Source: a virus
Lineage: Duplodnaviria; Heunggongvirae; Uroviricota; Caudoviricetes
Strand: one strand, 5' to 3'
Virus record (IMG/VR): IMGVR_UViG_2537561603_000006
Location: 1-38,043 of that record
DNA: 38,043 bases
Below the pieces are notes generated by a model that was given only the letters and a program-made list of their open reading frames with translations, did no database searches and had not been told where the DNA came from. Positions 26,863 through 31,380 of the stretch are shown here, one piece after another. The position numbers were made by a program, and so were the translations under genes. Each line of letters begins with the position of its first letter. Within the stretch, counting starts at the first letter, position 1.

Positions 26863-27323
26863 TCTTCACCCGATGCAGCGCGCTTGCTGCTTTTCCGTAA
26901 GCACCGCTCACGGCGCGCCAGAAAATTGTTTCGTTCTGACTGGGAGTGGCTTTCACGGAATGCCGCCATCCACACGGTTGCAGCACGACGGTATAAGCCC
27001 TTGGACTCCAGTTCTTCAGCCTGGCGGGTCAGGCACAAAATCACCCGGGGATCGTTAGTGCCGACATAGAAATTACGCACAGGTTTGGTTTCACGAACTG
27101 GTTGCGGTTCCGGCTCCTGCGCTCTCTCAGTCAGGCGCGGGAAATGTCTGCGTGTATCTCCTTCACAACGGTGAGCCACACGCCCACTCTGACGTAACTT
27201 GCTTGCAGACTGCAGAACGCGCTGCCGTGAGTAACCTGCAAAAGCATCCGCAATGTCTCCGGAAGTACACCCCGGATGGGCTTCAATGAATTTCTGAACT
27301 TCATTCAAAAGACTCATAATCAC
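26829..27323 (-). CDS. Hypothetical basic protein, replication/nin region
   Basis: 164 aa ORF downstream of the O-like gene; family not recognised. Confidence 0.45.
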   Translation of the reverse strand: MIMSLLNEVQKFIEAHPGCTSGDIADAFAGYSRQRVLQSASKLRQSGRVAHRCEGDTRRHFPRLTERAQEPEPQPVRETKPVRNFYVGTNDPRVILCLTRQAEELESKGLYRRAATVWMAAFRESHSQSERNNFLARRERCLRKSSKRAASGEEWYLSGNYVGA

Positions 27324-28261
27324 CCCCTGAATCCTGCCGGGATCTGGCTGTAGTCCACGTTGTCGTAACTGGATTTGAAGTACGGGTCTTCGCGTTTTTC
27401 GGTGTACGTGCTTACGGACGGCGATAAGCGCAGGGAAAGCTCATCCCATTTTTCCCGCAGCTTCGACGGGCTGAGCACGTTACGGCACCAGAACGGATCG
27501 CGGCTGACGCGGCTGTACATCTCGCAGATTTGTTTATGAGTACGCCCATCCTGTACACACATCAGGCGAATTTCGTTTGCCCAGGCTGTCCAGTTCGGTT
27601 CTTTAGGACGTACCACTTCGCCGTCACATTCGGCGGCCTGCTCGTACAGAGCGATGATTTTTTTCCAGAGCCACTGTGCGCAGGTCAAATCATCCTGCGT
27701 TCCCCACTGGCGCTTTTTAGGGCTGAATACAACCGCATCAGGATGGCGAGTTAAAAACTCTTGTTCAGCCGTCTGCGTGTCCGGTTGCGAAGCGTCCGGA
27801 CGAGAAGTTTTTTTATCTGACGGATCATGTTTTGATTTTACTGACGGATCCCCGCCAGATTCTGACGGGTGAAAACCCGCTTTTTTGCCAGATTTCGACG
27901 CATCAAATTTTGACTGGTCAGATTTTGATGCGTCAGATTTTGACGGGTCAGAATCTGACAGTTGAGAAAATGCCGCTGCCTGAAGCTTCGCAACGTTAAG
28001 CTGATAAACATTCGACGCATTGCGGTTACCCTGGCGACGCGCCTTACGCGTTAACCAGCCTTCCGCTTCCAGCCGTGCGATAGCCGTTCTGACGGTGCTC
28101 ATCCCCGCGCCAATCTGGCGGGCAATGGTTTCAATTGATGGCCAGCACACACCTTCGTCATTACTGAAATCAGCCAGGCGGGCCATAATTGCCACGCTGG
28201 ATAACTTCATGCCTGACGCAGCGCAACCATCCCATACATAGCCGGTTAATTTAGTGCTCAT
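27320..28261 (-). CDS. Replication initiation protein (lambda O-like, N-terminal HTH) with internal origin iterons
   Basis: 313 aa; N-terminal HTH-like region; central SDSDPSKSDASKSDQSKFDASKSGKK repeats encoded by the iteron DNA. Confidence 0.7.
   Translation of the reverse strand: MSTKLTGYVWDGCAASGMKLSSVAIMARLADFSNDEGVCWPSIETIARQIGAGMSTVRTAIARLEAEGWLTRKARRQGNRNASNVYQLNVAKLQAAAFSQLSDSDPSKSDASKSDQSKFDASKSGKKAGFHPSESGGDPSVKSKHDPSDKKTSRPDASQPDTQTAEQEFLTRHPDAVVFSPKKRQWGTQDDLTCAQWLWKKIIALYEQAAECDGEVVRPKEPNWTAWANEIRLMCVQDGRTHKQICEMYSRVSRDPFWCRNVLSPSKLREKWDELSLRLSPSVSTYTEKREDPYFKSSYDNVDYSQIPAGFRG
27811..27961. repeat. Iteron array (candidate ori) inside the O-like gene
   Basis: At least seven direct repeats of about 14-16 bp of the form (T/C)CAGAT(T/C)(T/C)TGACGG. 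Confidence 0.6.
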
Positions 28262-28609: not shown

Positions 28610-29220
28610 GCGTTAGTTTCTCCACAACCAGAAGCAATCGACGCCACGACGCCCGGAGCTGCACACTCGCGGGCGTCATTACTTTCTGAAATGCAAAAAA
28701 TTTTGTAGACAAGTGCTGCATGCTCCTGCAGCTTCGAAATTGAGAGATACAGCTCGTCGTTAATTGCTGTCTTCTCATGCGGTTCCACTACACCGTCTTC
28801 GATTGCTGAACGAATCTGTTTTGAATAACTGCCGATCTGTTCAATGACTTCCAGCAGACGCTGGTTAATATCGGCGTTGTCCACATCCTCGACGTCAGGA
28901 AGAGACACAAAGACGCCATTTGCAGACTGCGCCACAGCATCAGCAATGAAGTGAGTTCCACCAGCACGTTGCAAAATCATTGCCCATCCCAGCGGGAAAA
29001 TCTGATCGCCATCAGCACGAAGGCGGTTAAATAATGCGTTCTCTGTTACATCCAGCCAGTCAGCTGCTTCAGCGTAACCACCCGGCAACTTTGCGATAGT
29101 TTTTCTGACAGCTTTCACGTACCACTCAGGCTGTTTTTCTACTTTCCAGTGATGCTTACCCACGGTTAGCCTCATCGTTCTGTGGTTTCTGTTAATCGAT
29201 TTATCCATTAGATTTTTCAT
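28606..29220 (-). CDS. Hypothetical regulatory protein in the cII position
   Basis: ORF immediately downstream of cro; start ambiguous (track start 29277 overlaps cro by 77 nt; internal Met at 29220 or 29208 more likely); family not recognised. Confidence 0.4.
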
Positions 29221-29401
29221 AAAGCTCAGGTTTAAATGGCAACCGTCCGCAAGTTCTATATGCAGCTTCTGCTGCACGTCCTTTTGGAATTAACTGGCCC
29301 GGACGGTTTCGCCACTGATAAACGGCTTCAGTTGTTATGCCGAAAAAAGCAGCAACTTTCTCAATACTGCCGAAGTAGCTTTCGATATCGTCAGTTGTCA
29401 T
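29201..29401 (-). CDS. Cro-like HTH regulator
   Basis: 66 aa, HTH region AAFFGITTEAVYQWRN; GGAGGG Shine-Dalgarno upstream; divergent from cI across an operator region. Confidence 0.7.
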   Translation of the reverse strand: MTTDDIESYFGSIEKVAAFFGITTEAVYQWRNRPGQLIPKGRAAEAAYRTCGRLPFKPELYEKSNG

Positions 29402-29498
29402 ACGCCCTCCAAACTAAGTTTTATTAGATGCTAATTACAAATCTATCTTTGGTCAATAAAAACTAAGATTACTTAGCAATTCAAGAAATGGTGCTCCT
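29402..29498. promoter_or_regulatory. Divergent promoter/operator region between cro and cI
   Basis: AT-rich 97 bp with repeated CTAAG/CTTAG half-sites: CTAAGTTTTATTAG (29414-29427) and CTAAGATTACTTAG (29463-29476). Confidence 0.5.
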
Positions 29499-30125
29499 AT
29501 GGAAACGGTTGGTCAGCGTATAAAAGCTCTGAGAAGAGTTACCAGAACGTCCCAGAAAGAATTGGGTAAATTTTGTGGAGTAAGCGACGTTGCTGTGGGG
29601 TACTGGGAGAAAGACATCAATACCCCTGGTGGGGAGGCACTTTCGAAATTAGCGAAGTTCTTCAATACGTCAATAGATTACATTCTTTATGGTGCTGAGT
29701 TTGAAGGCAAACTCGTCACAAACATGCGCAGAGTTCCTGTAATATCGTGGGTTCAGGCTGGGCAGTTTACTGAGTGCAGGGCAGCAGAAGTGTTTAGTGA
29801 AGTGGACAAGTGGGTAGATACATCATTAAAGATTGGTGATAACTCATTTGCATTAGAGGTTAAAGGTGACTCCATGGCTAACCCTAATGGCCTCCCAACA
29901 ATACCAGAAGGCGCAACAGTGATTGTAGATCCAGATGCAGAACCTCGTCATGGAAAAATAGTCATCGCTCGACTTGATGGAACAAACGAAGCTACAGTAA
30001 AAAAATTAGTCATCGATGGCCCTCAAAAGTTTTTAGTGCCATTAAATCCTCGGTATCCCAACATCCCTATCAATGGTAATTGCCTTATCATTGGTGTAGT
30101 CAAAGGAGTTCAATACGAACTCTAA
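29499..30125 (+). CDS. CI-like repressor (N-terminal HTH, C-terminal S24 LexA-like peptidase domain)
   Basis: 208 aa; N-terminal HTH (QKELGKFCGVSDVAVGYWEKD); C-terminal ...ALEVKGDSMANPNGLPTIPEGATVIVDPD... with Ser-Lys dyad context. Confidence 0.85.
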   Translation: METVGQRIKALRRVTRTSQKELGKFCGVSDVAVGYWEKDINTPGGEALSKLAKFFNTSIDYILYGAEFEGKLVTNMRRVPVISWVQAGQFTECRAAEVFSEVDKWVDTSLKIGDNSFALEVKGDSMANPNGLPTIPEGATVIVDPDAEPRHGKIVIARLDGTNEATVKKLVIDGPQKFLVPLNPRYPNIPINGNCLIIGVVKGVQYEL

Positions 30126-30309
30126 GACCTCTCTTCTCTAACTAAGGCACCGAACTAAGAAAAGTTTGGTGTTTTCTCTTGCCATAACAACTAAGTTAAG
30201 TTAGATTTTATGTCAAAGATAACGAACAGGCAGGACGCCCACGAAGTAGCCGCCGGTGGCGTATGAATGACCGGATGATTCGTTAAATACTATGTGTAAG
30301 AGAGCGCAA

Positions 30310-30513
30310 ATGAACCGTTATCTCACATGCTCGTTTTGTGGCGCAAACGAGCTGCAGGCAAAAAAAATCATCGCCAAAGGCGGAAAAGATGAAGTTGCTA
30401 TCTGCTCTGAGTGCGTAGTCTTGTGTGTCGGAGCATTAATCAATATCAGCACAACTATTCAGTTCACACCAAATGAGAATGCGCCTTTAGATGCGCGGAA
30501 ATCTGGAGGTTAA
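30310..30513 (+). CDS. ClpX N-terminal zinc-binding-domain-like small protein
   Basis: LTCSFCGANELQAKKIIAKGGKDEVAICSECVVLC has the CxxC-x20-CxxC pattern and flanking residues of the ClpX zinc-binding domain ([32 protein letters not shown], recalled); start at 30310 preferred over 30292. Confidence 0.55.
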   Translation: MNRYLTCSFCGANELQAKKIIAKGGKDEVAICSECVVLCVGALINISTTIQFTPNENAPLDARKSGG

Positions 30514-30521
30514 AGAACAAA

Positions 30522-30797
30522 ATGAAAGTCCAGATTTTAAACAATAGTGGTGAAGTCGTTTGGTCATACGACATAGCCGCTCCTGTAGATCAGAGCGGCG
30601 ATAGCTGGACCAATGGGAAACATCAGATTATGGCTGGAGTTGTATTCTCTTTACGCCGTGCTTTGGAACAGGCTGAAGTATTTCCATCAGACCCTGAATG
30701 GAAATGGCCTTTTTCTATTTGTCCAAATTCGGAGAGCACATTTCAGAAAATTGGTCAGAAAGTCGCACTCGAAGAGCATCAGCCAACTGTTTTCTGA
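30522..30797 (+). CDS. Hypothetical protein (rex-position cargo)
   Basis: 91 aa; GGAGG Shine-Dalgarno 8 nt before the ATG; 3' end overlaps a convergent ORF. Confidence 0.45.
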   Translation: MKVQILNNSGEVVWSYDIAAPVDQSGDSWTNGKHQIMAGVVFSLRRALEQAEVFPSDPEWKWPFSICPNSESTFQKIGQKVALEEHQPTVF

Positions 30798-30960
30798 TTT
30801 TTTCAGGTAACTCGTCGGCATCGCAGAAACAACAACGCTCGATCATGTTGAAAGCCGATTCGTAGAACTGTTTCTGCTGAGTGTCGCTGAGACAGGAAAA
30901 GAGCGACGTTACGATGATTTTATTAATTGCATTATCAAGTTCTTTTTCATCAAAAGTCAT
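30715..30960 (-). CDS. Hypothetical protein (convergent to the rex-position genes)
   Basis: 81 aa; strong Shine-Dalgarno AAGGAAAA before ATG at 30960; Cys cluster ERCCFCDADE. Confidence 0.45.
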   Translation of the reverse strand: MTFDEKELDNAINKIIVTSLFSCLSDTQQKQFYESAFNMIERCCFCDADELPEKIRKQLADALRVRLSDQFSEMCSPNLDK

Positions 30961-31380
30961 TTGATTTTCCTTTTATGTATACGGGCTTAAAAGGATACCA
31001 CCGAGCCTGAAGTGGTGAAAAGACAGGCACATAACAGCTAAGTATTTTCAACCAGAGAGAATCCTTAGCGTTGTGGTGAATGCGGCTCAGCGCACGCGGG
31101 TTAAGGTTGAGGCTGACAGTCGACCTTCTGTGGATACCCACCCGTCTGGTGTGCAACCTTCGCCAGGCACCGGGAGGCACCCGGCACCACAACTTTATGC
31201 TGTGTGTAGTCTTGGCGGTACCAGTTTGTACCCTTGCTTCCGGCTGGTACCGCTCTTTTTACAAAACAGAGAAGAGCATCACCGGACGACGGGCTCATAA
31301 CCCAATCCATCCGGGCGGCTGCCACCGCAGGTGTTCTTCTCTGTTTTGTGGAGAAACCAACCGACCTTGCAGGGTCGATA

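Follow-up and report, generated by a model that had tools for sequence, protein, structure and literature searches.

The DNA analyzed here, called the window throughout, is a stretch of 38,043 nt (IMG/VR record IMGVR_UViG_2537561603_000006) that represents an SfV/CPS-53-like lambdoid prophage of Escherichia coli, with yfdP, yfdQ, yfdR, and the integrase gene downstream on the + strand. Past its cI-type repressor gene, the window was found to encode a 67-aa protein, referred to below as the zinc-finger protein, that is a stand-alone homolog of the ClpX zinc-binding domain (ZBD) without the ATPase. Its gene lies behind an element of the OL/pL type (left operator and leftward promoter) and, judging from related phages, is probably the first gene of a repressor-controlled early-left operon, in the position that N holds in lambda. 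We propose that the protein would imitate the ClpX N-domain early in lytic growth and act as a decoy or competitor in the ClpXP pathway. This interaction is one that we infer, and we give it a probability of roughly 40%. The gene is located as follows:

30310-30513, + strand: zinc-finger gene, encoding a 67-aa stand-alone ClpX-type C4 zinc-binding-domain protein (core residues 1-45)

The protein (MNRYLTCSFCGANELQAKKIIAKGGKDEVAICSECVVLCVGALINISTTIQFTPNENAPLDARKSGG) matched the Pfam family zf-C4_ClpX (PF06689) with 42.6 bits against a gathering threshold of 27 (E 5.6e-11), and its sequence matches in the PDB were ClpX N-domains only (2ds5_A, E 5.4e-5). An AlphaFold2 (AF2) model had a pLDDT of about 67-87 over residues 1-50/51, with disorder predicted for the tail, residues 52-67. 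When the model was searched with Foldseek, all of the top 7 matches were ClpX ZBD structures (probability 0.98-1.0, TMt 0.68-0.83, rmsd 1.4-1.8 Å), and every match in the PDB other than a ClpX ZBD had E>1. From the model and these matches, the predicted fold is a ClpX ZBD-type zinc finger with a C-terminal helix at its end. The AAA+ module with its IGF loop is absent from the 67-aa protein, as the NCBIfam ClpX equivalog scored 26.5 bits against a cut-off of 359 and matched at model positions 5-43 only. Apart from such subthreshold matches to the ClpX N-terminus, NCBIfam gave no family for this protein or for the products of the two neighboring genes described below, p91 and p81.

These Pfam, PDB, Foldseek, and NCBIfam results bear out the initial annotation of this DNA, which had been made from the sequence and had described a stand-alone ClpX zinc-binding domain lacking AAA+; the zinc-ribbon-type fold that it had expected was found, and the AF2 model matches ClpX ZBD structures only. 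The cysteine spacing that it gave, CSFC-x20-CSEC, has to be corrected to CSFC-x21-CSEC, with a 3-residue loop insertion relative to ClpX. The four cysteines (C7, C10, C32, and C35) align with C14, C17, C36, and C39 of ClpX and are invariant across the family, and the protein presumably binds zinc and dimerizes. Compared with two Salmonella alleles, the gene differed by 8/8/29 and 11/10/30 nt at codon positions 1/2/3. This third-position excess shows that the open reading frame (ORF) is genuine and that purifying selection acts on it. An in-frame ATG at 30292, which would give a protein of 73 aa, was rejected as the start since the homologs all begin at the Met of 30310.

The cI stop and the zinc-finger start are separated by a 184-nt spacer (30126-30309) that contains a hairpin, two operators, a promoter-like site, and a leader. 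The features of this immunity region are listed here in order along the window:

29201-29401, - strand: cro-like gene of the P22_Cro family (Pfam P22_Cro 4.4e-11), divergent from cI
29412-29476: OR (right operator) region, with two exact copies of the operator AACTAAGN5TTAG at 29412-29427 and 29461-29476 (repeat families D4 and D6)
29499-30125, + strand: cI-type repressor gene (Pfam Peptidase_S24 1.4e-27, HTH_3 1.3e-9)
30144-30184, + strand: probable cI terminator, a hairpin and then UUUUCUCUU (RNA fold -15.1 kcal/mol, z -2.4)
30153-30168 (1 mismatch) and 30189-30204 (exact): predicted OL-type operators with the AACTAAGN5TTAG motif
30179-30207, + strand: pL-type promoter-like site from a promoter scan, TTGCCA-17-TAGATT, overlapped by the operator at 30189-30204
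30224-30283, + strand: predicted transcribed leader, GGCAGGACGCCCACGAAGTAGC..., with the hairpin CCGGT (30253-30257) / ACCGG (30270-30274)

The operator motif was matched four times in the 38-kb window, twice in OR and twice between cI and the zinc-finger gene, compared to 0.53 matches expected, and none of 100 shuffles reached four. An operator-like string at 31030-31043 (D10) was dismissed as a feature specific to this immunity because SfV, which has another immunity, carries the same string. The whole arrangement runs from a leftward cro through OR to a rightward cI, followed by the terminator, OL/pL, the leader, the zinc-finger gene, p91 with the antisense p81 overlapping it, an STnc100-like small RNA (sRNA), yfdP/Q/R, and the integrase gene. 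The zinc-finger gene is thus co-oriented with the downstream integration genes on the + strand.

The same layout was seen with other immunity types. In SfV, in the Salmonella phages 118970_sal3 and F1055, and in the Rac-like metagenomic prophages L006 and L009, the repressor gene is followed by a stem and T-run hairpin and then by a -35 element, which is TTGAC-type in all of these except L009, where it is weaker. The region past the repressor also contains, in each of the five, sequences identical to the phage's own OR motif. Hairpins with a clearer stem and T-run, read as terminators by eye, follow the repressor in SfV, L003, L004, L006, L009, and L133, and the one in SfV is annotated as a putative rho-independent terminator. 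The comparison of operators covered SfV, L003/L004, L006, L009, L133, and L134, and L011/L012 were compared for promoter and leader. The motifs were as follows:

SfV: TGTACCC, OR motif also present at the post-repressor site
118970_sal3 and F1055: ACTTGCGCAA / TTGCACAnTGCGCAA, OR motif also present at the post-repressor site
L006: AGTTTATnTCGATA, OR motif also present at the post-repressor site
L009: AAGTTTATAAAC, OR motif also present at the post-repressor site
L133 (Enterobacter-type prophage): AATGTAAGAT, same design
L134: window-type operators, with TTGACC-17-TAGATT at the homologous promoter position
L011 and L012 (E. coli, with a different XRE-type repressor): TTGACA-17-TAGATT in L011 and TAAATT in L012, then the same leader and zinc-finger gene

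The motif differs from one immunity type to the next, and it does so at both sites, which is what characterizes OL/pL. An OL/pL-type element upstream of the zinc-finger gene, in turn, means that the gene heads the early-left operon and is not in the rex position, where it had been placed before. The gene had also been described as lying directly after cI, which is right as far as strand and proximity are concerned but overlooks the spacer and its hairpin, operators, promoter-like site, and leader. Expression from the lysogen, which had been assumed, does not fit a gene downstream of such an element; repression by cI is expected instead, so that the gene would stay off in the lysogen and be expressed early once induction or infection occurs. 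In all of the phage and prophage loci with gene order examined, the zinc-finger gene was the first after the repressor or its promoter.

One locus differs between the repressor and the promoter. In L012, from E. coli STEC799, a BRCT-domain gene (1933-2823, - strand) on the opposite strand separates the repressor from the pL-type promoter. For this phage group, it is here that the true equivalent of the rex position (a moron site) lies, and the zinc-finger gene of L012 stays behind the promoter and the leader despite the insert.

The leader itself is conserved far beyond the window. About 60 nt (GGCAGGACGCCCACGAAGTAGCCGCCGGTGGC...), located 21-28 nt past the -10 of the post-repressor promoter, were seen in the window, L002-L008, L011, and L012, in which the flanks, immunity regions, and first genes are otherwise unrelated. 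RNAalifold recovered the CCGGT/ACCGG hairpin, and its pairing is kept in SfV through two compensatory changes (CCTGG/CCAGG). An exact 22-mer of the leader was present in at least 120 IMG/VR contigs of enterobacterial phages. For 113 of these contigs, enough sequence follows the leader to identify the first ORF. Of these, 8 have the zinc-finger gene there, 12 have the 91-aa gene, 83 have some unrelated small ORF, of which there are many kinds, and 10 have no such ORF. The unrelated first ORFs include YdfA/DUF1391, the gene that opens the dicB operon of Qin. No Rfam family matched the leader. It could provide nut/put-like antitermination, be a site of processing, or act as a regulatory RNA of another kind. 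The slot behind the leader, in which the zinc-finger gene sits, is hypervariable and seems to be a reservoir of small proteins for the early takeover of the host.

Three further features lie between the zinc-finger gene and yfdP:

30522-30797, + strand: p91, a 91-aa gene (PHROG 3195, no Pfam family) that starts 8 nt past the zinc-finger stop
30715-30960, - strand: p81, an 81-aa gene (PHROG 3311), convergent with p91, the 3'-most 83 nt of which it overlaps
31040-31262, + strand: STnc100-like prophage sRNA (Rfam RF02076, full length, 44.3 bits against a gathering threshold of 47, E 5.3e-8)

The p91 ORF is real, as shown by a third-position bias in codons 1-64 (codon-position differences of 15/9/36 and 20/11/34), and homologs were found down to 58% identity. 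Its AF2 model had a pLDDT of 47 and was unusable for a fold search. Past codon 86, substitutions track the antisense frame (6/20/4, at the antisense third codon position), and a 122-aa form of p91, which appears in the gene calls of the divergent loci L006-L009, was rejected for this reason. The p81 protein is 63% identical in those loci. Since p91 and p81 occurred together in 15 of 16 contigs, Rac-like prophages included, p81 is the conserved partner of p91. PGAP annotates only p81 of the pair. Their overlap suggests antisense or transcriptional-interference control.

The p91 ORF had previously been taken as coupled to the zinc-finger gene in a two-gene cassette. It is real and begins only 8 nt past the zinc-finger stop, but the two genes are far more often apart than together. 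Among the IMG/VR contigs that share the leader, 8 carried the zinc-finger gene, 6 of them with no p91, and 16 carried p91, 14 of them with no zinc-finger gene. SfV has p91 and lacks the zinc-finger gene, with window positions 30285-30519 swapped for 46 nt, and F1055 has the zinc-finger gene and lacks p91. In mEp460_4F5, which has the same cI as the window, a helix-turn-helix (HTH) protein replaces both genes. In the Rac-like prophages L006-L009, p91 is the first gene after the repressor and the zinc-finger gene is absent. The two genes move as separate modules, and p91 is, from these gene contents, independent of the zinc-finger gene.

Within the sRNA stretch, 31201-31255 also gave a weak DicF-like match. 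PGAP annotates the positions corresponding to 31040-31262 as a pseudogene, 'frameshifted hypothetical protein', in L001, a near-identical genome. At the gathering threshold, Rfam gave no match over the whole window.

The zinc-finger protein family is already catalogued and is uncharacterized: the intact gene is named 'ClpX C4-type zinc finger protein' by PGAP and belongs to PHROG 5259, to which no function is assigned. The segment 29400-31400 was 99.8% identical to E. coli chromosomes, and the zinc-finger gene was present in 98 of 5426 complete E. coli genomes. Close relatives came only from E. coli, Salmonella, Citrobacter, and Enterobacter prophages. Stand-alone proteins that are more distantly related, and that contain between one and four units resembling the ZBD, were common in genomes and metagenomes. 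The top match of the representative search (P0042) was a 2505-aa repeat protein and was taken as spurious. The gene includes one unstable site:

30360-30367, + strand: A8 homopolymer within the coding sequence of the zinc-finger protein, which is shortened to 35 aa in the A7 allele

This run is a frameshift hotspot. The truncating A7 alleles were found in L001 and L075. Such alleles occur across a cluster of E. coli genomes that are nearly identical and in one IMG/VR contig. The match length was 236 or 238 nt, and not 237 nt, in 12 of 40 sampled E. coli matches, mostly near-identical genomes. The run is broken by synonymous or conservative changes in more divergent alleles.

One of the distant relatives was found in a different setting. 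On the P0267 contig (JGI 3300067032), a 59-aa environmental ZBD immediately follows an HTH_3 gene, and two free Clp_N-domain proteins of 158 and 229 aa are encoded nearby. Genes for an integrase and a transposase are present on the contig too. Such a grouping is a hint of mobile islands in which isolated Clp N-domains are gathered, and the parallel to the zinc-finger gene is suggestive.

How closely the zinc-finger protein could imitate ClpX depends on its surface. The ClpX ZBD (PDB 1OVX, 2DS5-2DS8; PF06689) has the same C4 ligand pattern and is 38-44% identical to the phage protein, and the predicted fold superposes on it over 39-45 columns at 1.4-1.8 Å. In ClpX, the ZBD is joined via a linker to the AAA+ module, whereas the phage protein is free-standing and is encoded at the head of a predicted early operon. 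It further departs from the ClpX ZBD by the 3-residue loop insertion, by Ala in place of Y34 and I46, and by a variable, disordered tail. A hydrophobic pocket formed by F16 and I46 of the ClpX ZBD is common to trigger factor, lambdaO, SspB, and RssB (PMC7804408), and our pocket comparison was made for these two residues as given in that paper. F16 and the core hydrophobic residues are conserved in the zinc-finger protein, where the F16 equivalent, F9, is invariant in the family. The fold and core are thus ZBD-like, and the client-binding surface of ClpX is kept only partially.

The C-terminal tails vary within the family (57 to 123 aa). In the longer homologs P0009, P0010, P0013, P0046, and P0049, the tails have a common short motif, I/L-x-V/F-x-F-x-x-A-P, for example ITVKFGDAP, ISFPDAP, and LSVKFDYAP. 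A looser version, TIQFTPNENAP, is found at about residues 47-59 of the window protein. This motif could be a docking peptide.

A free ZBD that competes with ClpX, as the initial annotation had imagined, has a precedent in vitro. The isolated ClpX ZBD is an autonomous, constitutive dimer that crosslinks to RssB and, when added in trans, inhibits the RssB-dependent degradation of sigmaS by ClpXP in vitro (PMC7226468). SspB XB-motif peptides are bound by the isolated ZBD with a KD of 35-82 nM (PMC12373786), and the ZBD is needed for the degradation of lambdaO (PMC7804408). In the mechanism that we propose, the zinc-finger protein would be silent in the lysogen and would be produced at once on induction or infection. 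It would then bind ZBD-dependent substrates or adaptors, such as lambdaO-type initiators, SspB, RssB, and MuA/UmuD-type clients, or, alternatively, it would pair with the ZBD of ClpX itself. By either route, the ZBD-dependent branch of ClpXP degradation would be diverted or blocked. The benefit to the phage is speculative: a lambdaO-type initiator might be stabilized, or the ClpXP-dependent activation of host suicide modules might be prevented. It is a tentative reading that, within minutes of induction, pL would yield a trans-acting phage mimic of the ClpX N-domain, which would reprogram the substrate choice of ClpXP by titration or by capping of the ZBD.

A replication-initiator-like protein (HTH_36) is encoded elsewhere in the window, at 27320-28261 on the - strand, and its N-terminus is MSTKLTG. 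This N-terminus resembles the N-terminal ClpX recognition signals of Dps (STAKL) and lambdaO (TNTAKI). The protein is a candidate client if the zinc-finger protein shields a phage protein from ClpXP.

Several observations weigh against the decoy proposal. The equivalent of ClpX I46 is Ala42, at a position that is variable in the family; the equivalent of Y34 is an invariant Ala; and a basic 3-residue loop insertion (KGGKDE) is specific to the family. With these changes, the binding surface may differ from that of ClpX, and the residues that are invariant only within the zinc-finger family suggest that it has a partner of its own. Frameshifted alleles persist, and the gene is dispensable, being absent from mEp460_4F5 with the same cI and from SfV with the same downstream genes. 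The promoter and operators upstream of the gene are assigned by consensus and by comparison. Furthermore, we found in the literature no functional study of phage or stand-alone ClpX zinc-finger proteins. The changed residues would be explained if the ZBD fold has been reused for a target unrelated to ClpX, so that the protein, as a small zinc-ribbon dimer, binds some other factor of the host or the phage, its tails giving the specificity and its likeness to ClpX reflecting ancestry. The strong conservation of the family-specific residues, the tails of varying length (some with the motif phi-x-phi-x-F..AP), and the many bacterial stand-alone or tandem ZBD proteins without a known link to ClpX are in keeping with this. 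Nevertheless, the ZBD core residues and F16 of the adaptor pocket are retained, an isolated ZBD binds ClpX clients autonomously (PMC7226468, PMC12373786), and none of the data suggest an alternative partner. We consider reuse for another target to be a serious possibility, if a somewhat doubtful one. Another possible explanation is that the protein is an adaptor that docks on ClpX, by ZBD-ZBD pairing or by its tail, and delivers a specific host protein to ClpXP. The ClpX ZBD is a constitutive dimerization module (PMC7226468), tethering to the ZBD suffices for the degradation of degron-free proteins (PMC12373786), and the variable tails might be the cargo-binding part. The tail of the window protein, though, is short and predicted to be disordered, any heterodimer would have to form against a very stable ClpX ZBD dimer, and no cargo candidate is known, which makes delivery of a host protein unlikely.

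The function put forward in the initial annotation, a rex-like exclusion cassette of the zinc-finger and 91-aa genes that is co-transcribed with cI in the lysogen and sabotages superinfecting phages, appears very improbable. The zinc-finger gene is near cI on the same strand, the U-run after the cI hairpin is weak, which makes some read-through conceivable, and the 8-nt gap with a GGAGG before the 91-aa start suggests co-translation in the window. Against this, operators and a promoter stand between cI and the gene, both here and in the other immunity types tested, the true insert between repressor and pL, in L012, is a different gene, and the two ORFs are separable. PADLOC (E<=0.1) gave no match to a defense model for the zinc-finger, p91, yfdP, and yfdQ proteins, and only a negligible match for p81 (SspC, E 0.035, 10.3 bits). 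The frameshifted alleles in near-identical E. coli genomes also argue against strong selection in the lysogen. The earlier account therefore had the domain right and a reasonable biochemical idea, placed in the wrong regulatory compartment and joined to an unrelated neighbor.

The decoy proposal can be compared with three known arrangements. Lambda rexAB lies between cI and OL and is transcribed with cI in the lysogen. The zinc-finger gene resembles it in being on the cI side of the immunity region and on the same strand as cI, but it is located beyond the OL/pL-type element and has no homology to RexA or RexB. In the Qin dicB operon, the dicA repressor gene is followed by ydfA-ydfB-ydfC-dicF-dicB. 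The logic is the same as in the window, with a repressor gene, a repressed promoter, small ORFs, an sRNA, and further genes; YdfA (DUF1391) fills the same leader-proximal slot in contigs related to the window, and a DicF/STnc100-like sRNA lies downstream in the window. The window differs in that its first gene encodes a ZBD protein, and no dicB homolog was identified in it. Lambda CIII is a small protein of the pL operon that inhibits FtsH, and T4 PinA and T7 Gp4.5 are phage inhibitors of Lon. What these would have in common with the zinc-finger protein is a small accessory protein from a repressor-controlled early operon that competes at a host AAA+ protease, as we propose here. There is no relation in sequence or fold, and the target in our case would be ClpX, reached by mimicry of the protease's own docking domain. 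By analogy, the zinc-finger protein would be the ClpXP counterpart of lambda CIII.

ClpXP controls lambdaO, Mu, sigmaS, LexA fragments, and several antitoxins, and we know of no natural phage inhibitor or modulator of ClpX. In the literature, we found no phage inhibitor or modulator of ClpX or ClpXP; PMC3874153 names ClpXP only with regard to HsdR. The decoy mechanism, if it is real, would be a new phage route to manipulate a host AAA+ protease. A free docking domain that works as a decoy would be a simple mechanism, and it would be a tool for the selective block of adaptor-dependent ClpXP degradation. If the protein is indeed a ClpX mimic, the many stand-alone ZBD proteins in genomes and metagenomes would gain a function as well.

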